A stretch of DNA of 32,000 nucleotides, from NCBI GenBank assembly GCA_030649345.1, contig JAUSKK010000036.1, positions 2,024 to 34,023 on the forward strand. Reading direction: 5' to 3'. Positions 6,573 through 24,727 of the stretch are shown one piece after another. The translations under genes were made by a program, and so were the position numbers. The notes under the pieces are model-generated. The model saw nothing but the letters and a program-made list of their open reading frames with translations, was not told where the DNA came from and ran no database searches. The stretch comes from Candidatus Iainarchaeum sp. Its GTDB lineage: Archaea > Iainarchaeota > Iainarchaeia > Iainarchaeales > 0-14-0-20-34-12. The stretch's first letter is position 1, and the number at the start of each line of letters is the position of its first letter.

Positions 6573-8249
6573 ATGCTTGAAAAAGTAAAAGAAATTGCTT
6601 TCAAATACGGAGTCAAAAATGCGTTCATCCATGAAGGCAAAGCAGATGTAGGAGCTGTAGTCGGAAAAGTCAAAGCCATGATTCCAGACATTGACTTAAA
6701 GAAAGCCATGCCAATTATCCAAGAAGCAGTCAAAGAAATTAATGGAATGAGCAAAGAAACTTTGGAAACAGAATACAAAAAGTTTGAAGAACAAGGCTAT
6801 GAATTAAAACCCAAAGACAAACAAGAAGGATTACCAGCAATAGATTGGGCTGAACAAAAAGAAAAACCAATGATTACACGATTTGCACCCAATCCAACTG
6901 CACCTTTTCATTTAGGCAATGCACGCGCAGCTATCATTAGCCACGAATATGCACGCAAATATAATGGAAAATTTATTTTACGATTTGATGACACAGACCC
7001 TAAAGTAAAAAAATCAAGGGCGGACGCGGAAGAAATTTTCTTGCGAGACTTAACTTGGCTGGGAATTACAGTAGATGAAACTTATTTTGCGTCCGATCGA
7101 TTAAGCACATACTATCATTACATGCGCGAACTCATTAAATTGGGAAAAATGTATGCTTGCACTTGTGAAACTGAAAAATGGAAACAACTTATTGACAACA
7201 AACAAGGTTGTCCATGCCGAGATTTAGAACCAGAGAAAGTTGAAAAATTATTTGAACAAATGTTAAGCCATGAACTTAAAGAAGGACAAATTGTTTTACG
7301 AATGAAAACAGATTTACTGCACAATGATCCAAGCATAAGAGATTGGTGGGTTGCCAAAATTGTGGACAATCCAGAACATCCTAGAGTAGGAAGCACATAC
7401 AAAGTTTGGCCTTCGTATAATTTTGCTTCAGCAATTGACGATCATGAATTGGGAATTACATTAATTGCACGAGGACAAGAACATGCACAAAATGGAACCA
7501 AACAAAAATATTTATACGATTATTTAGGCTGGGAATATCCTGCAGAAATTTATTTTGGCCGCGTGAAATTACAAGGAGTTATTTTGTCTAAATCTCAAAT
7601 GGAAAAAGGAATCCAAGAAGGATTGTATACAGGTCATGATGATCCAAGATTGGGAACCATTCAAGCATTTCGAAGAAGAGGATTTAGACCAGAAGCATTG
7701 AAAGATGTGATTATTTTTATTGGAATTAAATCCAGCGATACTACTTTGGAATGGAATTTTATTTCCAGTGAAAACAAAAAATACATAGAAAAAGAAGCTG
7801 TACTGATTACGTTTTTAGAACAACCTGTGAACTTGCATGTTGATTTTTCTCCAGAAAAAACAGTGGAATTGAATGAAGGAATGTATGATTTAAAGCAAGG
7901 ACATCAAAGTTTTTTGGTAGACCGGAAAGAAATTGAAAAATATGGTGTTGGAAAAATTGTACGATTAAAGCAAGCCTACAATGTCCGCATTAAAAGCATG
8001 GATCCATTTGAAGTTCATTCCGAGTATGTGGCAGATATTAAAATCAAAGAAACCATTCCATGGCTATTGGAAGAAAATGCAGTGGACGTACAAATAGTTA
8101 TGCCCGACAATTCAAGGCTAGTGGGCAGTGCAGAAACTAGAATATTAGAACAAAAAGTTGGACAAATTGTACACTTGGAAAGATTGGGTTTCGGAAGGTT
8201 AGATTCATTGGAAGGAAATCAACCCATAGTATGGTTTACGCACAAATAA
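6573..8249 (+). CDS. gltX: Glutamyl-tRNA synthetase (archaeal type)
   Basis: 558 aa. RFAPNPTAPFHLGNARAAIISHEYARKYNGKFILRFDDTDP carries the class I HIGH region, and VILSKSQ is the KMSKS-like region. The N-terminal ~95-aa helical domain is as in archaeal GluRS. Confidence 0.92.
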   Translation: MLEKVKEIAFKYGVKNAFIHEGKADVGAVVGKVKAMIPDIDLKKAMPIIQEAVKEINGMSKETLETEYKKFEEQGYELKPKDKQEGLPAIDWAEQKEKPMITRFAPNPTAPFHLGNARAAIISHEYARKYNGKFILRFDDTDPKVKKSRADAEEIFLRDLTWLGITVDETYFASDRLSTYYHYMRELIKLGKMYACTCETEKWKQLIDNKQGCPCRDLEPEKVEKLFEQMLSHELKEGQIVLRMKTDLLHNDPSIRDWWVAKIVDNPEHPRVGSTYKVWPSYNFASAIDDHELGITLIARGQEHAQNGTKQKYLYDYLGWEYPAEIYFGRVKLQGVILSKSQMEKGIQEGLYTGHDDPRLGTIQAFRRRGFRPEALKDVIIFIGIKSSDTTLEWNFISSENKKYIEKEAVLITFLEQPVNLHVDFSPEKTVELNEGMYDLKQGHQSFLVDRKEIEKYGVGKIVRLKQAYNVRIKSMDPFEVHSEYVADIKIKETIPWLLEENAVDVQIVMPDNSRLVGSAETRILEQKVGQIVHLERLGFGRLDSLEGNQPIVWFTHK

Positions 8250-8403
8250 TAGAAATTTAAGAGGCAAGGCACTATTTTTAAAGCTTTTGAAAGGCTAGTA
8301 TTGTATACTGGTTTTATAGTCTACTTGCCGAAGGCAATTCGGAGGTATCGGAACCGAAGGTTCTGATTTAGACAGTAACCGATGATAATTTGGAGGTTAG
8401 AAT
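8250..8403 (+). promoter_or_regulatory. Long structured leader/spacer upstream of rpl7ae (function unknown)
   Basis: 154 nt, noticeably more GC-rich than other spacers. Hairpins CCGAA-GGCAA-TTCGG (8328-8342) and GGAACC-GAA-GGTTCT (8350-8364). Alternative pairing ATCGG 8347-8351 with CCGAT 8379-8383. CTGA at 8363-8366 and GATGATA at 8381-8387. SD GGAGGT at 8392-8397. Confidence 0.3.
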
Positions 8404-9006: not shown

Positions 9007-9273
9007 ATGAATAATTGTTCATTTTGTGGAACTAACATTCAACAAGGTACTGGAATTATTTTTGTAAAAAGAACCGGAAAACGTTTTGATTTCTGTTCAC
9101 GAAAATGTGAAAAAAATTTAATGAAATTAAATCGAAATCCAAGAAATTTCAAATGGACCCAAGAATACTGGAAAGAAAAAGGATTCCAGCAAGAAAAAGC
9201 AGGAAAAACTGAAACAGCTAAAAAAGAAGAAACTACAGAAAAGAAAGCTGTGAAACGAAAAAGAAAAAAGTAA
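9007..9273 (+). CDS. rpl24e: 50S ribosomal protein eL24 (L24e)
   Basis: 88 aa. CSFCGTNIQQGTGIIFVKRTGKRFDFCSRKCEKN is the L24e zinc-ribbon signature, followed by a lysine-rich tail. Confidence 0.93.
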   Translation: MNNCSFCGTNIQQGTGIIFVKRTGKRFDFCSRKCEKNLMKLNRNPRNFKWTQEYWKEKGFQQEKAGKTETAKKEETTEKKAVKRKRKK

Positions 9274-9274
9274 A
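9251..9274 (+). repeat. Direct repeat copy 1: last 6 codons plus TAA of rpl24e
   Basis: TGAAACGAAAAAGAAAAAAGTAAA matches 9375-9398 at 22/24. Patchy similarity (AATT..GTGG..CTG..CAAT) continues about 25 nt further in both copies. Confidence 0.8.
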
Positions 9275-9281
9275 CAATTCT

Positions 9282-9376
9282 GTGGTGCTGCAAGCACAAT
9301 AAAACAAAATGTTTTATGTGCATCAAAATCAGCAGATTTTGATTGCACCACGTTCGACCAACCGGAACCCCGGTTG
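9282..9376 (+). repeat. GC-rich structured intercistronic element, copy I1 (two-stem module)
   Basis: Stem 1 is GTGGTGC 9282-9288 / GCACCAC 9345-9351. It encloses two hairpins, 9294-9321 (12 bp with 1 bulge) and ATCAAAAT/ATTTTGAT 9322-9343. Linker is G-TTCGA. Stem 2 is CAACCGG-AACC-CCGGTTG at 9359-9376. Confidence 0.7.
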
Positions 9377-9398
9377 AAACGAAAGCGAAAAAAGTAAA
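9375..9398 (+). repeat. Direct repeat copy 2 of the rpl24e 3' end
   Basis: TGAAACGAAAGCGAAAAAAGTAAA. The two differences from copy 1 (AAA>AAG, AGA>CGA) are synonymous in the rpl24e frame, so it still reads KRKRKK-stop. Confidence 0.8.
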
Positions 9399-9406
9399 AT
9401 AATTTA

Positions 9407-9455
9407 GTGGCACTGGCGCAGCAATGCAACAGTGTCACATACTATCAATCCGGTG
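9407..9455 (+). repeat. Degenerate copy (I5) of the two-stem element
   Basis: Stem GTGGCACTG 9407-9415 / CAGTGTCAC 9430-9438 (9 bp including one G-U). It is followed by A-TACTA-TCAATCCGG, which resembles the core GCAsCAC-G-TGCTA-CCAACCsG at 13/20 against copy I4. Confidence 0.45.
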
Positions 9456-9925
9456 ATATTTTGGAACGAACGTTAATTATTGTAAAACCAGATGCAGTTC
9501 AACGAGGCTTGGTCGGAGAAATTGTAAAAAGATTTGAAGACAAAGGCTTGAAAATTGTAGCCATGAAATTAGAAGTATTGGCTGAAGAAAAACTCAAAGA
9601 ACATTATGCGCATCATTCCACAAAACCATTTTTTCCTGAATTGGTCAACTTTATGAAAAGTACACCTAGTGTATTAATGGTCTTGGAAGGCACAGAATGT
9701 GTTCGAGTGATTCGACAAATGTTGGGTGCCACCAATGGAAGAGATGCAACTTCTGGAACTTTACGCGGAGATTATTCCATTAGCAATCAAAATAATTTAG
9801 TTCATGCCAGTGAAAGTTTGGAAGCAGCAGAAAAAGAAATTGCTCGCTTTTTCAAAAAAGAAGAAGTCATGAATTACACCAAAACTTTAACTGAATGGTT
9901 TTATGCCAGTAAAGAAAAAAATTAA
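9407..9925 (+). CDS. ndk: Nucleoside diphosphate kinase
   Basis: ERTLIIVKPDAVQRGLVGEI..RFE.KGLKIVAMK...NLVHASES is the NDK signature with the active-site His. The conserved core begins at TTG 9461 (MERTLIIVKPD). GTG 9407 is the first base of a hairpin arm, so the first 18 codons are doubtful. Confidence 0.88.
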   Translation: MALAQQCNSVTYYQSGDILERTLIIVKPDAVQRGLVGEIVKRFEDKGLKIVAMKLEVLAEEKLKEHYAHHSTKPFFPELVNFMKSTPSVLMVLEGTECVRVIRQMLGATNGRDATSGTLRGDYSISNQNNLVHASESLEAAEKEIARFFKKEEVMNYTKTLTEWFYASKEKN

Positions 9926-10474: not shown

Positions 10475-12229
10475 GTGAAAATTATGATTCGACAACCGAT
10501 TATTGTAGTCATGGGCCATATTGACCATGGAAAAACCAAATTATTGGACAGAATTCGCGGAACCACTATAGCTGAAAGAGAAGCTGGAGCGATTACGCAA
10601 CATATTGGTGCTACTGAATTACCTGAAAATAAAATTCAAGCTATTTCTGGAAACTTATTAAAGCAATTTGGATTTCAATTAGAAATTCCAGGCTTATTGT
10701 TTATTGATACGCCTGGGCATGATGCATTCACGAATTTAAGAAGACGCGGTGGAAGCATTGCCGATTTATCTATTTTAGTTGTAGACTGCATGCAAGGAAT
10801 TCAACCGCAAACTTTGGAAGCCATTCAAATTTTGAAAACATTCAAAGTACCGTTTGTGGTAGCGTTTAATAAAATTGACAAATTACAAAACTGGCAAAGC
10901 AAGACAGGTTCGTTTTTAGAAAATGAAAAAATTCAAACTACCCATGCCCAAGAATTATTGGATAAAAAAATCTATGAATTGGTTGGAAGATTGTTTGAAT
11001 TAGGATTTGAAGCAGAACGCTTTGATCGAATTCAAGATTTCCGAAAACAAATAGCTATTGTTCCTTTGTCGGCTGTGGTGGGAGAAGGAATTCCTGAATT
11101 GTTAATGATGCTGTCTGGTTTAAGTCAAAAGTTTTTGAAAAACAAATTGGAAATCGGAGAACAAGAAAAATGCAAAGGCACTGTCTTGGAAGTCAAAGAA
11201 GACAAAGGCCTAGGAACAACATTGGATGTAATTTTATACGAAGGATCTTTACGCGTAGGAGATATCATTGCTGTTGGAACCAAACAAGGAGTCACTGAAA
11301 CCAAAATTCGTACTTTACTCAAACCCAAACCATTATCGGAAATACGGGATGAAAAAAATGTATTCAAATCAGTAGAATCTGTAAGCGCGGCTTGCGGAGT
11401 AAAAATTTCCGCTCCAAACTTAGAAAATGTTTTAGCGGGTTCTCCAGTATTGGATGCCAGTGTGGAATCACGGCAACAAATATTGGATGAAATTAAATCC
11501 ATTAAAATTTCAACCGAAGATATTGGCTTAGTCATCAAAGCAGATACTTTAGGATCCTTGGAAGCATTGATTGGATTAATGAAAAACAATCAAATTCCAG
11601 TACGATCCGCAGATGTAGGAATGGTTACCAAAAAAGATGTCATGGAAGCTTTGGCTTCAAAAGAAAAAGATGTTTACCATGGCTGTATTGTTGCATTCAA
11701 TGTAGAAATTGATAAAACTGCAGAAGACGAAGCCAAAAAAAGAGAGATTCAATTATTTTCAGGAAAAGTAGTGTACACCATTATTGATGAATATTCAAAT
11801 TGGGTAAAAACTCAAAAAGATCAAATGAAAAAAAACAAGTCTACTTTCTTGATAAGTCCAGCAAAAATTGAAGTATTGCGAGGCTTTGTTTTTAGAAGAT
11901 CCGATCCAGCCGTGGTTGGCGTAAAAGTATTGATTGGAAAAATTAAATCCAAAACAACATTGATTAATGAAAATACAATGGTACGATTGCAGGGATTGCA
12001 GGAAGAAAAAAAGGCTGTTGAATCTGCAGAAAAAGGAAAAGAACTGGCAGCATCCTTAGAGAATGCAGTCATTGGCCGAAACTTGTTTGAAGGAGATATA
12101 TTGTATACGTATATTCCAGAAAGCCAATTTGAAGAAATTCCAAAGTATTTGGAGCTAAATTCTGAAGAATTGGCCTTACTGGAGGAAATAAAAAATGTTC
12201 AAATCAAACATAAAGAGAACGGAGGATAA
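10475..12229 (+). CDS. infB: Translation initiation factor aIF5B (IF-2 homologue)
   Basis: 584 aa. PIIVVMGHIDHGKTKLLDRIRGT (G1), DTPGH (G3) and NKID (G4), with four-domain length. Start is GTG 10475 or ATG 10484. Confidence 0.93.
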   Translation: MKIMIRQPIIVVMGHIDHGKTKLLDRIRGTTIAEREAGAITQHIGATELPENKIQAISGNLLKQFGFQLEIPGLLFIDTPGHDAFTNLRRRGGSIADLSILVVDCMQGIQPQTLEAIQILKTFKVPFVVAFNKIDKLQNWQSKTGSFLENEKIQTTHAQELLDKKIYELVGRLFELGFEAERFDRIQDFRKQIAIVPLSAVVGEGIPELLMMLSGLSQKFLKNKLEIGEQEKCKGTVLEVKEDKGLGTTLDVILYEGSLRVGDIIAVGTKQGVTETKIRTLLKPKPLSEIRDEKNVFKSVESVSAACGVKISAPNLENVLAGSPVLDASVESRQQILDEIKSIKISTEDIGLVIKADTLGSLEALIGLMKNNQIPVRSADVGMVTKKDVMEALASKEKDVYHGCIVAFNVEIDKTAEDEAKKREIQLFSGKVVYTIIDEYSNWVKTQKDQMKKNKSTFLISPAKIEVLRGFVFRRSDPAVVGVKVLIGKIKSKTTLINENTMVRLQGLQEEKKAVESAEKGKELAASLENAVIGRNLFEGDILYTYIPESQFEEIPKYLELNSEELALLEEIKNVQIKHKENGG

Positions 12230-12233
12230 ATAA

Positions 12234-12293
12234 ATGGTTCCAAAATTCGAAAGAATTTTGAAACTTTAAAAAACACGGAGGTTTTTTAATGGC
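12234..12293 (+). promoter_or_regulatory. 60-nt upstream cassette, copy A (hairpin + AAACTTTAAAAAA + GGAGG + T6 + ATGGC), ending in the rps6e start
   Basis: 50/60 identical to 22813-22872. The 8-bp stem CAAAATTC/GAATTTTG (12241-12260) is intact in both copies while all 4 loop bases differ. Confidence 0.7.
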
Positions 12294-12790: not shown

Positions 12791-14014
12791 ATGGCTGGAA
12801 AAAAAGTAAAAACAGACAGCAGTGCACAATGCGTGCAAGCTGAAGTGAATATTGGTTTAGCCGGCCATGTAGATGCAGGAAAAACAACTTTAACTCAAGC
12901 ATTGAGTGGAAAATGGACAGACACGCATAGTGAAGAATTAAAGCGCGGAATTTCAATACGATTGGGATATGCGGATATTGGAATTTATAAATGCAGTAAA
13001 TGCAAAGAATTTAATTATTCGAATACCAGTGAATGCCCACAGTGTAAATCTCCAGGTATTTTAGACCGCAAAGTTAGTTTTGTGGATGCGCCAGGGCATG
13101 AAACATTAATGACTACTATGTTAAGTGGAGCTGCACTTATGCAAGGCGCTTTGTTGGTAATTGCCGCCAATGAAACTTGCCCGCAAGCACAAACCATTGA
13201 ACACTTGAATGCATTAATTATCAGCGGCATCGAGCAAGTCATTGTAGTGCAAAGCAAAGTAGATTTGGTCACCGAAGAACGAGCATTGGAAAGTCATAAA
13301 GAAATTAAAGAATTTTTGAAAGACACCCAATACAAAAACGCGCCCATTGTACCCATTGCAGCACATTTCAAAATCAATATTGATATATTATTGGAAGAAA
13401 TTCAAAAAAGTATTTCTTCGCCGAAATTTGATTCTACAAAACCATTGAAAATGTTTTGTGCACGATCTTTTGATATTAATAAACCAGGAACGCTTCCTTC
13501 AGAATTACATGGAAGTGTTTTAGGCGGAACCATTATTCAAGGAACCATCAAAAAAGGAGACACCATTGAATTAACTCCTTGGCTGGATGGAAAACAAATT
13601 CAAACCAAAGTTATTGAAATTCGAACCAGCGATGGAGTCTTAGAAGAAGCCAAGCCAGGCGGTTTAATTGCAATAGAAACTTTATTGGATCCAAGTTTAG
13701 CACAAAACGATCAGCTTAAAGGCCAAAACATTGGAGCTGTAGGAATATTCTCTGAACCTACCACAGTCTTGAAAATAGAAATGCATTTTTTGGATCGAGT
13801 TGTTGTCAGCAGTGCTAAACGAGTAGTGCAAGGAGATGACTTGGTTTTAACAGTTGGAACTGCAACTTTGTTGGGAATTGTTTCCAGCGTAAAAGGAAAT
13901 ACTGTAGTTGTTGCTTTGAAGAAACCAGCCGTAGCTGAAAAAGAACAAAAACTTGCAGTCAGCAAACGAGACCAAATGAAATGGAGATTAATTGCTTACG
14001 CAATCAATAAATAA
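12791..14014 (+). CDS. eif2g: Translation initiation factor aIF2 gamma subunit
   Basis: 407 aa. NIGLAGHVDAGKTTLTQALSGKWTDTHSEELKRGISIRLGYA, the zinc knuckle CSKC..CPQC, DAPGH and SKVD. Confidence 0.95.
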   Translation: MAGKKVKTDSSAQCVQAEVNIGLAGHVDAGKTTLTQALSGKWTDTHSEELKRGISIRLGYADIGIYKCSKCKEFNYSNTSECPQCKSPGILDRKVSFVDAPGHETLMTTMLSGAALMQGALLVIAANETCPQAQTIEHLNALIISGIEQVIVVQSKVDLVTEERALESHKEIKEFLKDTQYKNAPIVPIAAHFKINIDILLEEIQKSISSPKFDSTKPLKMFCARSFDINKPGTLPSELHGSVLGGTIIQGTIKKGDTIELTPWLDGKQIQTKVIEIRTSDGVLEEAKPGGLIAIETLLDPSLAQNDQLKGQNIGAVGIFSEPTTVLKIEMHFLDRVVVSSAKRVVQGDDLVLTVGTATLLGIVSSVKGNTVVVALKKPAVAEKEQKLAVSKRDQMKWRLIAYAINK

Positions 14015-14015
14015 T
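13983..14015 (+). repeat. Direct repeat copy 1: last 9 codons plus TAA of aIF2-gamma
   Basis: GGAGATTAATTGCTTACGCAATCAATAAATAAT is identical (33/33) to 14075-14107. Confidence 0.95.
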
Positions 14016-14074
14016 CAAAACTATCGAGGCAAAGCCGAAGATAGTTTAAAGTACCGCCGGCTTTCCGGCGAAAC
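14016..14074 (+). repeat. GC-rich two-hairpin insert, copy I2
   Basis: 29/59 G+C. Hairpin 1 is AAACTATC 14018-14025 / GATAGTTT 14040-14047, with GGC-AAA-GCC in the loop. Linker is AAAGTA. Hairpin 2 is CGCCGG-CTTT-CCGGCG at 14055-14070. Tail is AAAC. The right half aligns with I1 (ACC..CCGG..CCGG..GAAAC). Confidence 0.75.
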
Positions 14075-14107
14075 GGAGATTAATTGCTTACGCAATCAAT
14101 AAATAAT
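14075..14107 (+). repeat. Direct repeat copy 2 of the aIF2-gamma 3' end
   Basis: 33/33 identity to 13983-14015. It ends exactly at ATG 14108. Confidence 0.95.
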
Positions 14108-14587
14108 ATGCAATCAATCAATAAAAAAATGAATATTAAAAATGAAAAAAAATTAAACAGTGCTGCTGAAGTGCAACGAAAGCAGCACGTGCTACCAACC
14201 CGCACGCGGGTTGCAATTGACACAAATATGTTGTTAAGTGTCAGTCAATTAAAATTGGATATTTTTCAAGAAGTAGTCAACGAATTTGGAGAACAAAATT
14301 CTGAAATTGCAATCCCAGATAGGGTATTAAATGAATTAAAAAAATTGGCAGAAATTGAAAAAAACAAAGATGCCATTTTAGCTCAAGCCTGGTTAAACCA
14401 GAAAAAATTTAAAGTTTTGAAAGCCCAAAAGGCCGATAATGCAGATAAAGCCCTTTTAGAGCTTGCAAAACAAGGGTTTATCATAGCTACCAATGATAAA
14501 GTCTTACGAAAAAGTATAAAAAACGTTAATGGCAAGAGTATTTATATTAGAAAACGAAAAGTACTAGACTTTTCAGAAACATTCTAA
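14108..14587 (+). CDS. PIN-domain protein (the Fcf1/Utp23-like PIN gene conserved between aIF2-gamma and rpoE in archaea)
   Basis: The core VAIDTNMLL...IPDRVLNEL...DKALLELAKQGFIIATNDKVLRK carries PIN acidic residues. Gene order aIF2gamma-PIN-Rpo7-Spt4-S24e-S27ae is conserved. The start is uncertain: TTG 14084 lies inside the duplicated repeat, and other candidates are ATG 14108, ATG 14129 and GTG 14189. Confidence 0.72.
   Translation: MQSINKKMNIKNEKKLNSAAEVQRKQHVLPTRTRVAIDTNMLLSVSQLKLDIFQEVVNEFGEQNSEIAIPDRVLNELKKLAEIEKNKDAILAQAWLNQKKFKVLKAQKADNADKALLELAKQGFIIATNDKVLRKSIKNVNGKSIYIRKRKVLDFSETF
14160..14213 (+). repeat. Two-stem element, copy I4, inside the 5' extension of the PIN ORF
   Basis: Stem 1 is GTGCTGC 14160-14166 / GCAGCAC 14182-14188. 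Linker is G-TGCTA. Stem 2 is CAACCCG-CACG-CGGGTTG at 14196-14213. The core 14182-14201 is 16/20 identical to 9345-9364 and 15/20 to 22517-22536. Confidence 0.7.
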
Positions 14588-15235: not shown

Positions 15236-15268
15236 GGTGAATTTTAAATGAATTTAAAATTTAAAAAA

Positions 15269-15306
15269 AATTTTAAAACTTTAAAAAACCGGGGGTTTTT
15301 TAAATG
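15269..15306 (+). promoter_or_regulatory. Partial third copy (C) of the upstream cassette, ending in the spt4 start
   Basis: AATTTTAAAACTTTAAAAAACCGGGGGTTTTTTAAATG aligns with the 3' two-thirds of cassette A (20/21 over AATTTTGAAACTTTAAAAAAC). It is preceded by an AT-only palindrome, AATTTTAAAT/ATTTAAAATT, at 15240-15261. Confidence 0.55.
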
Positions 15307-15501
15307 ACGGTAAAAGGAAAAGCTTGTAGAAATTGTAGAAAAGTAATTGAAGAAGGAAGTAATTGCCCCAACTGCAATAGCACAGCTTTCACAACTTTTT
15401 GGAAAGGATATGTAATCATTGTAAAACCAGAACAATCGGAAATTGCCAAACGCATGGGCATTAAAACAACCGGAATGCATGCTTTGCGATTAAGCAGATA
15501 A
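15304..15501 (+). CDS. spt4: Transcription elongation factor Spt4 (RpoE'')
   Basis: 65 aa. Zinc ribbon CRNC..CPNC followed by WKGYVIIVKPEQSEIAKRMGI, the Spt4 NGN-binding signature. Confidence 0.88.
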   Translation: MTVKGKACRNCRKVIEEGSNCPNCNSTAFTTFWKGYVIIVKPEQSEIAKRMGIKTTGMHALRLSR

Positions 15502-20613: not shown

Positions 20614-22500
20614 ATGAGTAAAGTAATTGGAATCGATTTAGGAACCAGTAATTCAGCAGCTGCAGTCTTGGAAGCAGGAAAACCAAAAATTATTCCAAGC
20701 GCAGAAGGAACTTCTTTATACGGAAAAGCATTTCCAAGTGTTGTGGCATTCACAAAAGATGACCAAGTTTTGGTGGGTGAACCGGCACGCAGACAAGCTG
20801 TCAGTAATCCAGATAAAACAATTATGGCAGCCAAGCGAAAAATGGGAACTACTTTCAAATACAAGATTGGCTCGAAAGAATTTACGCCTCAACAAATTAG
20901 TGCATTTATTTTACAGAAAATTAAAAAAGACGCAGAAGAATTTTTAGGCGAAAAAGTAGAAAAAGCTGTAATCACTGTGCCAGCTTATTTTGATGACAAT
21001 CAAAGACAAGCAACCAAAGATGCAGGAGAAATTGCAGGCTTGGAAGTTATTCGAATTATTAATGAACCCACAGCTGCTGCTTTAGCCTATGGCTTAGATA
21101 AAAGCAATCAAGACATGAAAATTTTAGTATTCGATTTCGGCGGCGGAACATTGGATGTAACTGTAATGGAATTAGGCCATGGAGTCTTTGAAGTCAAATC
21201 AACCAGCGGAGACACTCAATTGGGCGGCACAGACATGGATAAAATTTTAGTGGATTATTTGGTGGCAGAATTCAAAAAAGAACAAGCTGTTGATTTAAGC
21301 AAAGACAGTGTAGCTATGCAGAGATTACGAGAAGCTGCAGAAAAAGCCAAAATTGAATTAAGTACAGTTTTGGATACACAAATTAATTTACCGTACATTA
21401 CAGCTACTCCGGAAGGCCCGAAACATTTGGCCCTGAGTTTAACAAGATCAAAATTAGAACAATTGGTCGAGCCCTTAATTCATAGATGCGAAAAACCAGT
21501 CCAGCAAGCTTTGGCGGATGCCAAAGTATCCCCGGGAGATGTAGCTAAAATTATTTTAGTCGGCGGACCAACCCGAATGCCTGCAGTACAAAAGTTTGTG
21601 GAAAAAATTACAGGAGCCAAACCAGAACGAGGCATTGACCCAATGGAATGTGTAGCTATGGGTGCAGCCATTCAAGCCGGAGTTTTAGCTGGAGAAGTTA
21701 AAGATGTTTTATTATTGGACGTAACACCCCTAAGTTTAGGAATTGAAACCTTGGGTGGAGTGTTTACTCATTTAATTGAACGCAATACAACCATTCCAAC
21801 CAAAAAAACTCAAATATTTAGCACAGCTGCAGACAACCAAAATGCAGTAGATATTCATATCCTGCAAGGAGAAAGACCTATGGCAGTAGACAACAAAAGT
21901 TTGGGCAGATTTATTTTAGATGGAATTCCTCCAGCACCTCGCGGTGTTCCACAAGTTGAAGTCATGTACGATATTGATGCCAACGGAATTTTGGATGTTA
22001 AAGCCAAAGATTTAGGCACAGGCAAAGAAAAAAGCATCAAAATTGTTTCTCCGCAAAAATTGGATAAAGAAGAAATTGAGCGAATGAAGCAGGAAGCGGA
22101 AAAGTTTGCAGAAGCGGATCAAAAGAAAAAAGAAGAGATTGAAACTTTGAATATGGCAGACAACACAGTTTATGGGACTGAAAAGGTGTTGAAAGAATTG
22201 AGCGGGAAAATTTCTGCAGAACAAGAAACAGAAATTAAAGAAAAAAATGAAACATTAAGAAAATTAGTAAACGAGCCAACCAAAGATGTTGCAAAAATTA
22301 AAACAGCTTTAGATGACTTGAATGCATTCGTGCAAAAAATCAGTACAGAAATGTATCAAAAAGCCGGAGAACAATACCAGCAACAAAATCAAGGAGAACA
22401 AGGAAATCCCGGACAAGAAGAAGAACACAAGCACAAAAAGAAAAACAAAGACGGAAAAGTGGTTGACGCGGAGTTTAAGGAAGACGAAAGCAAACAATAG
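20614..22500 (+). CDS. dnaK: Chaperone DnaK (Hsp70), bacterial type
   Basis: 628 aa. [56 protein letters not shown] and [15 protein letters not shown] lies 7 nt upstream. Confidence 0.97.
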
Positions 22501-22502
22501 TG
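22461..22502 (+). repeat. Direct repeat copy 1: last 12 codons plus TAG of dnaK
   Basis: GGTTGACGCGGAGTTTAAGGAAGACGAAAGCAAACAATAGTG matches 22595-22636 at 41/42. Confidence 0.95.
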
Positions 22503-22594
22503 CTGAACGCAGTGAAGCACTACGACCTACCAACCGCGCGATTAAAACGCAGCGTTTTAATGCGCATTTAAACAAAAGTTTAAATCGCGTCCGC
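22503..22594 (+). repeat. GC-rich structured insert, copy I3 of the two-stem element
   Basis: Short stem AGTG-AAG-CACT at 22511-22521. Core is GCACTACG-ACCTA-CCAACCG at 22517-22536. The outer stem CAACCGCG 22531-22538 / CGCGGTTG 22592-22599 reaches into repeat copy 2. It encloses the hairpins ATTAAAAC/GTTTTAAT (22541-22561) and ATTTAAAC-AAAA-GTTTAAAT (22566-22585). Confidence 0.75.
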
Positions 22595-22636
22595 GGTTGA
22601 CGCGGAGTTTAAGGAAGACGAGAGCAAACAATAGTG
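22595..22636 (+). repeat. Direct repeat copy 2 of the dnaK 3' end
   Basis: The single difference (A 22488 versus G 22622) is GAA>GAG, synonymous in the dnaK frame. Confidence 0.95.
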
Positions 22637-22665
22637 GAAAAGATAGAACAAATGGAGTTGGTCAT

Positions 22666-22794
22666 ATGAATCCTGAAGTGAAAGCAAAAAAAGTTGAACC
22701 TGTTTTGAAGAATCAACCGAAAGCAGAAGATGTAGTTATTCTTGGCCAAGCAAAAAAATCAAGAGATTACTTGAATAACTTTATGGCAGCATAA
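22666..22794 (+). CDS. Small hypothetical ORF (42 aa) between dnaK and dnaJ
   Basis: MNPEVKAKKVEPVLKNQPKAEDVVILGQAKKSRDYLNNFMAA, with GGAG about 8 nt upstream. The longer 22597 start lies inside the duplicated dnaK tail and is unlikely. No recognisable family, so it may be non-coding. Confidence 0.25.
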   Translation: MNPEVKAKKVEPVLKNQPKAEDVVILGQAKKSRDYLNNFMAA

Positions 22795-22812
22795 TTAATC
22801 AGGTAGAAATCA

Positions 22813-22872
22813 ATGGTTCCAAAATTCTTTTGAATTTTGAAACTTTAAAAAATAAAGGAATTTTTTAATGGC
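22813..22872 (+). promoter_or_regulatory. 60-nt upstream cassette, copy B, ending in the dnaJ start
   Basis: 50/60 identical to 12234-12293. Stem CAAAATTC/GAATTTTG at 22820-22839 with a TTTT loop. Followed by AAACTTTAAAAAA, then T6-AATGGC. Confidence 0.7.
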
Positions 22873-24057: not shown

Positions 24058-24312
24058 ATGAAAGTAATTGTGGAAACCACCAAGATGTCCACCAAAGGAC
24101 AAGTTATTATTCCGAAAGATGCACGCACATTTATGGAACTTGAAAAAAACACGGTTTTTTCAGTTTTAGCTTTGGATCAAAACACGCTTATTTTAAAAAA
24201 ATTAGATAAAGAAAAATTGCTAAGAGAGTTTGAAAATATTCGAGCACGCGTCAAGCATAAACTCTCTGAAAAGGGAGTGGATGCTATTGTTCACAAAGCA
24301 CGCAAAGGTTAG
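24058..24312 (+). CDS. AbrB/SpoVT-family antitoxin (VapB-like)
   Basis: 84 aa. MSTKGQVIIPKDAR is the swapped-hairpin AbrB/MazE signature. Its 3' end overlaps the PIN gene. Confidence 0.75.
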   Translation: MKVIVETTKMSTKGQVIIPKDARTFMELEKNTVFSVLALDQNTLILKKLDKEKLLREFENIRARVKHKLSEKGVDAIVHKARKG

Positions 24313-24727
24313 AGTTGTTCTAGACACCAACATTGTTGTTTCGGCTTTGATCGAAAAACGCGGTTATCCAGCGGAAATTTTTAGAAAACTTATTTCTGAA
24401 GAAATTGAATGTTTTACCAGCCAAGAAATACTGGACGAAATTGAAGATGTATTTAAAAGAACAGAAATTGTCAGCCGAACTTTACAGGCCGATCGGGAAT
24501 CCATATTAACAAATTTCAAGATTTATGCGCAATGGATTTCAATCAAAACCAAAGTAAAAACAGTACTGGAAGATTCAGATGATGATAAATTCATTGAATG
24601 CGCTTTGGACGCCAAAGCAGATTTCATTGTCAGCGGAGATCGACATTTGCTTAAACTAAAGGAATTCAAAGGAATAAAAATTATTAAAGCTAAGGAATTT
24701 ATAGACACAATAAGCGGCTGTTTGTAA
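24281..24727 (+). CDS. PIN-domain toxin (VapC-like)
   Basis: RVVLDTNIVVSAL..., EILDEIEDV, DSDDDKFIECAL and DFIVSGDRHLL carry the PIN acidic residues. ATG 24281 is the most plausible in-frame start (the ORF is open from 24230). Confidence 0.75.
   Translation: MLLFTKHAKVRVVLDTNIVVSALIEKRGYPAEIFRKLISEEIECFTSQEILDEIEDVFKRTEIVSRTLQADRESILTNFKIYAQWISIKTKVKTVLEDSDDDKFIECALDAKADFIVSGDRHLLKLKEFKGIKIIKAKEFIDTISGCL

Follow-up and report, generated by a model that had tools for sequence, protein, structure and literature searches.

MITEs, or miniature inverted-repeat transposable elements, are short, non-coding, structured pieces of DNA that come in several related copies, are flanked by direct repeats of their target, and have no transposase of their own. 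This also describes a set of small hairpin-forming inserts in a 32,000-nucleotide (nt) stretch of one metagenome-assembled genome (MAG) of the Iainarchaeota (Diapherotrites, DPANN). The full stretch is called the window here, and element copies were counted within it. Three of the inserts sit just behind a stop codon, between two copies of the end of the gene they follow. One of these, E1, separates the gene for aIF2-gamma from a PIN-domain gene. The favoured reading, to which a probability of about 0.5 is given, is that the inserts form a lineage-restricted family of two subtypes: miniature insertion elements that are non-autonomous and have unusually long target duplications.

The likeness to MITEs includes the presence of multiple related copies: inserts A, B and C are similar in sequence, and E1 and D share their architecture. 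Unlike the MITEs of bacteria and archaea, the inserts have no terminal inverted repeats, their ends overlap the repeats by microhomology, and no parental insertion sequence is known. The repeats measure 24-42 bp (29 in a case from a related locus, L013), where 2-10 bp is usual.

Repetitive extragenic palindromes (REPs) and bacterial interspersed mosaic elements (BIMEs) are similar in being GC-rich imperfect hairpins just after stops inside operons, with a possible effect on mRNA stability or on how the upstream gene is translated. REPs however make no target duplication, carry a conserved GTAG-type motif, and occur in hundreds of copies along with a RAYT gene.

The GC clusters and double-hairpin elements of fungal mitochondria are GC-rich hairpin pairs in AT-rich, compact genomes, suspected of being mobile and without an encoded enzyme. 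Like the inserts, they occur in intergenic spacers and at the ends of genes. They are however organellar, with target repeats of a few bases, and the comparison is by description only.

Integration by Cas1-family enzymes, as for CRISPR spacers and casposons, is staggered and duplicates a 14-37-bp target, and casposons favour the 3' ends of tRNA and translation-factor genes. The units here are instead related hairpin modules of 54-100 nt, not spacers or casposons of 8-20 kb, and they have no terminal inverted repeats, no array, and no cas1 in the window.

Small RNAs can also be retroposed, as in the mammalian snoRNA retroposons (PMC1687206) and a retrotransposon-like family of C/D sRNAs in Pyrobaculum (PMC6009581). 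Such units, which resemble short interspersed elements (SINEs), share with the inserts a small structured body with defined ends, duplications of variable length, microhomology at the junctions, and transcribed targets. What differs here is that there is no A-rich tail, no known source RNA and no identified reverse transcriptase, and that the repeats are longer than is typical.

The junction between aIF2-gamma and PIN

A preliminary description of the window had reported that the end of the aIF2-gamma gene is duplicated, over 33 bp, around a structured insert. This is the case: 13983-14015 is identical to 14075-14107 at 33 of 33 positions. The junction is laid out as follows.

12791-14014 (+): aIF2-gamma gene, 407 amino acids (aa); open reading frame (ORF) with TAA at 14012-14014, the identical gene in the Logan data has the Pfam domains GTP_EFTU and eIF2_C
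13983-14015 (+): upstream copy of the repeat (DR1 of E1); 3' end of aIF2-gamma, consisting of 2 nt, 9 codons (RLIAYAINK), TAA and 1 nt
14016-14074 (+): element E1, 59 nt, two hairpins, between DR1 and DR2
14075-14107 (+): downstream copy (DR2 of E1); perfect copy of the aIF2-gamma end, now non-coding or PIN 5' leader
14108-14125 (+): older, incomplete copy of the aIF2-gamma end (ATGCAATCAATCAATAAA), retaining the ATG that relatives have inside aIF2-gamma
14126-14159 (+): A-rich in-frame stretch between the probable old PIN start and B, without significant similarity to the gene tail
14160-14213 (+): element B, ACCAACC type, inside the 5' part of the PIN ORF; recognised by alignments to C and A and by its fold
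14108-14587 (+): PIN-domain gene (PIN_9/Fcf1-like), Q7S92_04480; ORF, Pfam PF18477

The repeat begins at codon position 2 (13983), and reaches 38 nt if one T/C mismatch is allowed (13978-14015 versus 14070-14107, 37/38). With a z score of 17.7 against shuffles the duplication is non-random, and chance identity is indeed negligible. DR2 opens with GGAG, has an in-frame TTG at 14084, and ends directly before the ATG at 14108. In this copy a single base separates stop and start (TAA-T-ATG), not the 4 nt that had been reported.

E1 is 54-59 nt long, depending on whether the 38-nt or the 33-nt repeat is used. Its G+C content is 29/59 (49%), where both the window and the genome have 35%. The two hairpins lie where they had been described. 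Hairpin I (14018-14047) has an 8-bp stem (14018-14025/14040-14047) that encloses GA, GGC-AAA-GCC and GAA. This is followed by the 7-nt linker AAAGTAC, which ends in TAC, then by hairpin II (14055-14070, CGCCGG-CTTT-CCGGCG, with a tetraloop), and finally by a tail AAAC. The predicted fold of E1 has -23.8 kcal/mol (z -3.6), a value that 1 of 200 shuffles equalled, and for the wider region z is -4.7.

Support at the level of reads comes from Logan unitigs (k=31) of run SRR13727527, which were assembled independently of the MAG. They are 100% identical to the window. One of them ends at 14012 and the next (L171) starts at 14078. These are the last and first unique 31-mers flanking the 33-nt repeat, which means that the reads hold both left and both right contexts. 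The unitigs therefore break as a true 33-nt repeat predicts. The two-copy arrangement is present in the reads, and an artefact of the MAG assembler is excluded.

The best explanation of the 33-bp repeat is a target-site-type duplication, left by the most recent insertion, that of E1 as a small non-coding GC-rich element of two hairpins. The preliminary description had suggested that the event is recent or homogenised by gene conversion, and the perfect identity fits a recent event: older analogous repeats in the window carry 1-2 mismatches. It was also right that the event kept the aIF2-gamma stop and the upstream context of PIN.

The window was compared with 80 related loci, 1.22 Mb in total, which include those labelled L007, L013, L016, L027 and L038. 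The closest GTDB genomes to the window are Iainarchaeota, with an aIF2-gamma identity of 50-58%. Taken over Iainarchaeota and other archaeal MAGs, the protein is 47-58% identical. The best non-self PIN homologue in the protein collection searched is 48% identical, and that collection holds no closer relative.

In relatives the two genes typically overlap. An in-frame PIN ATG lies within the aIF2-gamma codons GCT-TAT-GGx, with an overlap of ~17 nt, in at least 7 Iainarchaeota, and the PIN 'DTN' motif begins ~10 nt past the aIF2-gamma stop. In the window, GTTGCAATTGACACAAAT (V-A-I-D-T-N) begins only at 14210. This means that 14016-14209 (~195 nt) is derived. The deep ancestor was such an overlap, and not the junction of stop, spacer and ATG that had been proposed. 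The arrangement of a stop, 1 nt and ATG is an intermediate state, made by an older short duplication.

The third, partial copy of the junction that had been pointed out is real. Within 14108-14125 it agrees with the gene tail at 14/15 positions, and 1 of 2000 shuffles does as well. The copy reads ATG-CAA-TCA-ATC-AAT-AAA (MQSINK), and the overlapping PIN starts of relatives read M-G/E-Q-x-N-K. From this resemblance, it is probably the original PIN start, parted from aIF2-gamma by the older short duplication. Both 33-mer copies have TAC, a synonymous codon, at the former ATG, so that the 33-bp event came later than the short one.

Element B lies further into the PIN ORF. It has a hairpin I (14160-14188), a conserved core (14182-14200) and a hairpin II (14196-14213, CAACCCG-CACG-CGGGTTG). 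The 102 nt of 14108-14209 are stop-free and in frame, and B acts as a 51-nt in-frame insertion. It was not found at the aIF2-gamma/PIN junction of any relative. The PIN protein has 152-159 aa (152 according to NCBI) versus 122-134 in relatives, making it ~25-30 aa longer. Its start is uncertain, with candidates at TTG 14084, ATG 14108, ATG 14129 (the NCBI choice) and GTG 14189.

The preliminary interpretation is partly supported. Most relatives have no insert there, but L007 carries one of ~80 nt between aIF2-gamma and PIN (region 6940-7090).

Other duplicated gene ends and the kinship of their inserts

What had been described as a single rearrangement is a repeated-element phenomenon: the same architecture is found at L24e/NDK, after DnaK, and in the MAG of L013, and the inserts are interrelated. 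In the window, the last 50 nt (+5) of each of 41 genes were compared with the next 400 nt, with shuffles as control. Three of the 41, namely L24e, aIF2-gamma and DnaK, have their 3' end repeated downstream, each time around a structured insert enriched in G+C. The upstream copy stops 1-2 nt beyond the stop codon in 3/3 cases. The features at the other two genes are these.

9251-9274 (+): DR1 of C; last codons of L24e, TAA (9271-9273) and 1 nt, the L24e ORF being 9007-9273
9275-9374 (+): element C, ACCAACC type, 100 nt; fold z -6.0, related to A and B
9375-9398 (+): DR2 of C; 22/24 to DR1 (two mismatches), z 7.8
9407-9438 (+): hairpin D; hairpin-I shape, 9-bp stem with one G-T pair, just 5' of the NDK start
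22461-22502 (+): DR1 of A; last 12 codons of DnaK, TAG (22498-22500) and 2 nt
22503-22594 (+): element A, ACCAACC type, 92 nt; fold z -2.4 (wider region), related to B and C
22595-22636 (+): DR2 of A; 41/42 to DR1, z 36, the mismatch being A to G and synonymous in DnaK

Element C starts with a stem GTGGTGC/GCACCAC that closes two AT-rich hairpins. Then come the core and hairpin II (9359-9376, CAACCGG-AACC-CCGGTTG), whose last 2 nt are common to DR2. Logan unitig L173 (7436-9378) contains L24e, DR1 and the entire element C contiguously. Hairpin D, further downstream, has no significant primary-sequence similarity to the other elements. Upstream of NDK there is an old L24e-stop/Shine-Dalgarno-like GGTGA at 9451-9455, with a TTG at 9461.

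The NDK ORF is readable from GTG 9407 through hairpin D. The GGTGA with TTG 9461 fits the starts seen in relatives (M/L-E-R-T-L-I-I-V-K-P). Judging by these signals, the annotated N-terminal extension of NDK may not be translated.

Element A borrows from its repeat: its hairpin I (22498-22522) draws on the TAGTG of DR1. After the core comes a stem CAACCGCG…CGCGGTTG (22531-22599) that encloses two AT-rich hairpins. The first base of unitig L172 is 22595, and L173 ends at 9378, which is 2 nt past the GGTTG of C. The window has no 31-mer repeat there. The start at 22595 is suggestive, and only that, of a second left context in the population, for example an empty-site allele. Taken together, the two breaks hint at allelic (empty-site) variants or at near-identical element copies elsewhere. 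The unitigs of this run break every 2-3 kb, which weakens the weight of the break at 22595.

Between DnaK and DnaJ lies a small ORF (22597-22794), of 65 aa if read from TTG or 42 aa from ATG 22666. Its start falls within DR2 of A, and it is unrelated to the small membrane ORF that L016 has there.

Elements A, B and C share the core GCA[CG][CT]ACG[TA]NC[GT]ACCAACC (…ACGNNCKACCAACC) and a CAACC…GGTTG stem. Local alignments were scored against 1000 shuffles. The pairs C-B and B-A beat 1000/1000 of these (p<0.001), and C-A has p = 0.02. MAFFT alignments of the elements disregarded structure, and the conservation of stem pairs was read directly off the sequences. The inner pairs of hairpin II are compensatory (CCG/CGG, CGG/CCG, CGCG/CGCG). 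In order, they are C-G and G-C in B, G-C and G-C in C, and G-C, C-G and G-C in A. The hairpin II loops of A and C are enlarged by the AT-rich hairpins.

The shape of hairpin I is common to E1, A, B, D and the insert of L013, on stems of wholly different sequence. The shape is a 7-9-bp stem, GA(A), a mini-stem of 2-3 bp with a 3-4-nt loop, again GA(A), and the other side of the stem. One of these stems includes a lone G-T pair, functional on this strand only. A reading of hairpin I as a K-turn was rejected, because the paired basal stem forces a 2x2 to 3x3 GA loop, with no 3-nt bulge.

In the same shuffle test the primary sequence of E1 is not significantly similar to those of A, B or C. Its layout is that of the other elements: a hairpin I, a 7-nt linker ending in TAC, and a GC hairpin with a tetraloop. 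E1 does resemble three inserts in two other Iainarchaeota MAGs, namely that of L013 (ATCGAG…GAAGAT, p = 0.005), the one between L24e and NDK in L007 (p = 0.007), and the aIF2-gamma/PIN insert of L007 (GCCGGCTTTCCGGCGAAA vs GCAGGCTGCCGGCGAAA, p = 0.014).

All elements share the coding strand, which has a positive cumulative GC skew, and occupy junctions between highly expressed housekeeping genes that are tightly packed. The hairpins begin 0-10 nt past the stops of aIF2-gamma, DnaK and L24e.

The ends of elements and repeats share bases. In A, GGTTG closes the stem conserved in the family and at the same time opens DR2, where these 5 nt belong to the conserved DnaK codons V-V-D (GTG-GTT-GAC). 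The GTG that opens hairpin I likewise makes up the last 3 nt of the repeat (TAG-TG). The stem of C shares TG with its repeat, and that of B shares GTTG with PIN codons. The tail of E1, GAAAC, lies against a target GAAAT.

Mismatches between the repeat copies are graded, from 0/33 (E1) through 1/42 (A) to 2/24 (C). This decay, along with the still older partial copy at PIN, fits a series of successive events.

Among the related loci, the gap between L24e and NDK is 0-41 nt in 17/19 relatives, and mostly <=20 nt. These junctions end in …AGGTGA, followed by 0-20 nt and the start. The two exceptions are filled. In L013, a GC-rich insert of two hairpins, 86 nt long, lies between perfect 29-nt copies of the end of L24e (region 1985-2150). 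L007 has a 174-nt insert with internally repeated units that contain GGCAAAGCC (region 1805-2030). After DnaK, nothing comparable and no duplication was found in L027, L038 and L016.

A scan of the 1.22 Mb for a gene-end repeat with a folded GC-rich insert returned only the three cases of the window and the one of L013. The remaining local repeats in relatives are coding tandem repeats or paralogues, without the order of repeat, insert, repeat. CAACC…GGTTG hairpins after the core were found in 0 of the 80 loci. A descriptor of hairpin I is unspecific, with 66 matches versus 38 in shuffled DNA, and recovered only the window copies and L013. Rfam 15 gave no covariance-model match at gathering thresholds, and only meaningless sub-threshold matches at E up to 10. 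Literature searches turned up no description of such elements.

Mobile elements or something else

The reading as a family of insertion elements starts from what is plain in the data: the repeats are there, the inserts are related and have a folded architecture, and their state is derived compared with other genomes. The inserts look like an undescribed kind of miniature mobile element, of which the 32 kb hold at least 4-5: E1, A, B, C and probably D. The elements would be mobile now, or would have been recently. Insertion may well be replicative and primed by annealing, given that element ends and repeat ends share microhomology. The microhomology, which would point to insertion by copy choice or priming, comes from 3-4 junctions and is a lead, not a demonstration.

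In each datable insertion, the element would have been put 1-2 nt after the upstream stop, with the preceding 24-42 bp duplicated. The upstream gene would retain its own end (DR1), and the downstream gene its original upstream sequence (DR2). Since neighbouring genes overlap or share signals, probably only insertions that duplicate the shared segment are tolerated, which would account for both the long repeats and the position past the stop. E1 would be the youngest event, at a junction already opened by the short duplication and by B. Possible routes are microhomology-mediated template switching at a replication fork, or target-primed/template-switching reverse transcription that starts from a small structured RNA. 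Less likely, it seems, is a classical cut-and-paste transposase, because it gives no reason for element ends to coincide with the ends of the duplication, and annealing-primed copying does. Once inserted, the hairpins might, speculatively, act as 3' stabilisers of mRNA or uncouple the translation of the neighbours.

A stronger version must be considered doubtful. It holds that these are members of an active, undescribed archaeal class of structured RNAs or DNAs that copy themselves to just after stops, by SINE-like retroposition or a new integrase chemistry. This could proceed by annealing-primed copying, as in target-primed or template-switching reverse transcription, or through a ruler-type integrase with a stagger of ~30-40 bp. 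The target duplications would then have the size of CRISPR repeats and allow overlapping genes to outlive their separation.

Several observations weigh against insertion elements in general. The ends of E1, A and C are not linked by any inverted repeat, their only inverted repeats being the internal hairpins, and the 3' ends (GAAAC, CCGC, GGT) show no A-rich tail. Around B and D no flanking repeat is detectable. An empty-site allele was not directly seen. The copies come from one 32-kb stretch of this genome, and the rules on stop codons, repeat length and microhomology rest on 3-4 datable insertions. Within the window there is no gene for a transposase, reverse transcriptase, integrase, Cas1 or other Cas protein, or HUH/Y1 enzyme. 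The pattern GCASYACGWNCKACCAACCSS (the ACCAACC core) has 0 matches in IMG/VR. In JGI metagenomes it has 89, all in GC-rich bacterial coding DNA without the hairpin, and these are chance. Finally, the same two junctions are filled in three distant genomes, which could mean that old functional structures were retained.

That last point leads to a rather unlikely alternative, in which the hairpins are old, selected cis-acting RNA structures of operon transcripts, such as 3' stabilisers, processing or protein-binding sites, or translation uncouplers. The repeats would then be by-products of the separation of overlapping genes, held identical by gene conversion. All copies being mRNA-sense, directly after stops and within conserved operons agrees with this, as do the related inserts at aIF2-gamma/PIN and L24e/NDK in L007 and L013, and the fact that B and D keep the frame of the ORF downstream. 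The tandem-GA and mini-hairpin geometry of hairpin I, kept despite different stems and with one strand-specific G-T pair, also speaks for a function as RNA. Most relatives however do without an insert at these junctions, no Rfam family matches, and the duplication of 24-42 nt of the upstream gene and the microhomology at the ends go unexplained. A function of some kind is nonetheless plausible, and it is compatible with mobility, since bacterial REP elements are both. The inserts could further be hairpin elements of single-stranded DNA, mobilised by an HUH/Y1 transposase whose gene lies elsewhere (REP/RAYT, or the IS200/IS605-derived 'PATE'), with repeats that arose by slippage at the hairpins. 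Two hairpins and a short linker per element, extragenic sites just past stops, and co-orientation on the strand of positive skew all suit such a mechanism. It is nevertheless improbable: these families insert without target duplication beside a fixed tetra- or pentanucleotide, where the 5' flanks here differ (TAAT, AGTG, TAAA), and the window has no TnpA/RAYT gene.

A duplicated gene 3' end is the classic signature of an integrase, and translation-factor gene ends are known casposon targets. The repeats could on that basis be attL/attR-like scars of larger elements that integrated at gene 3' ends, a habit of many integrative elements of archaea and of casposons, and were since deleted almost wholly. 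This is very improbable, as only 54-100 nt lie between the repeats, homologous and alike in fold at three loci, and no integrase or Cas1 is nearby. Recombination of perfect att copies would moreover remove the insert fully, and not leave a core of two hairpins. Hardly credible, lastly, is an assembly artefact, or a set of collapsed or concatenated strain variants. The source is a MAG, and the frequent unitig breaks do show strain variation. But the k=31 unitigs are identical to the window, break at 14012/14078 as predicted and carry DR1 and C contiguously, and the architecture occurs thrice here and again in the unrelated MAG of L013.

Some known systems were tried and set aside. A diversity-generating retroelement does not fit repeats of 24-42 bp (<60) with 0-2 mismatches, at which the adenines are in the gene copy, nor a window without a reverse transcriptase. 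Against a CRISPR array or solo repeat, every pair of repeats derives from a gene end of its own, hairpin modules related to one another stand in the place of spacers, and the window has no cas gene. The GTTT…GAAAC 31-mer of E1, considered as a CRISPR repeat, is single copy in the window and all loci.

If the insertion elements are mobile, they would be a new type for archaea, with no inverted repeats and very long duplications, right behind the stops of core translation and chaperone genes. They would be present in a DPANN lineage, whose tiny genomes are regarded as streamlined and repeat-poor. They would illustrate how genes that overlap, or are translationally coupled, come apart with neither being lost, and how N-terminal extensions originate (in PIN, and possibly NDK). 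If they are regulatory RNA instead, they would be a new lineage-specific motif inside conserved operons, in which a GC hairpin comes after a tandem-GA one. On both views, the repeats mislead the calling of gene starts and break short-k assemblies.

Further features of the window

The gene content is housekeeping: ribosomal proteins, RNA polymerase subunits, aIF5B, aIF2-gamma, GluRS, ValRS, Kae1, Sua5 and GrpE-DnaK-DnaJ, among others. There are also genes for an S-layer-like protein, of which a homologue search found no paralogue in the MAG, and for a VapC-like PIN protein.

A conserved intergenic module of ~66 nt is found upstream of S6e, Spt4 and DnaJ (12228-12293, 15242-15307 and 22807-22872). 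It consists of a 28-nt palindrome (GTTCCAAAATTC…GAATTTTGAAAC), the TATA-like TTTAAAAAA, GGAGG-like bases and ATG. The S6e and DnaJ copies are 83% identical. The module looks like a shared promoter and operator.

Between an Rpb3-like gene and ribosomal-protein genes lies an intron-containing tRNA gene (1194-1315, +), with a 37-nt intron in the anticodon loop and a long variable arm. It was missed by Rfam and by ARAGORN at default settings, which reported no tRNA. ARAGORN with introns calls it Ile(tat), and the long arm suggests Leu(UAA).

The leader of L7Ae (8250-8403) has small GC hairpins (TTGCCGAAGGCAA, GGAACCGAAGGTTC) and boxes like CUGA and GAUGA. It may be an autoregulatory K-turn. At 24058-24727, amid housekeeping genes, a small AbrB/SpoVT-like ORF is followed by a PIN_3 (VapC-like) gene, and the two are probably a toxin-antitoxin pair.

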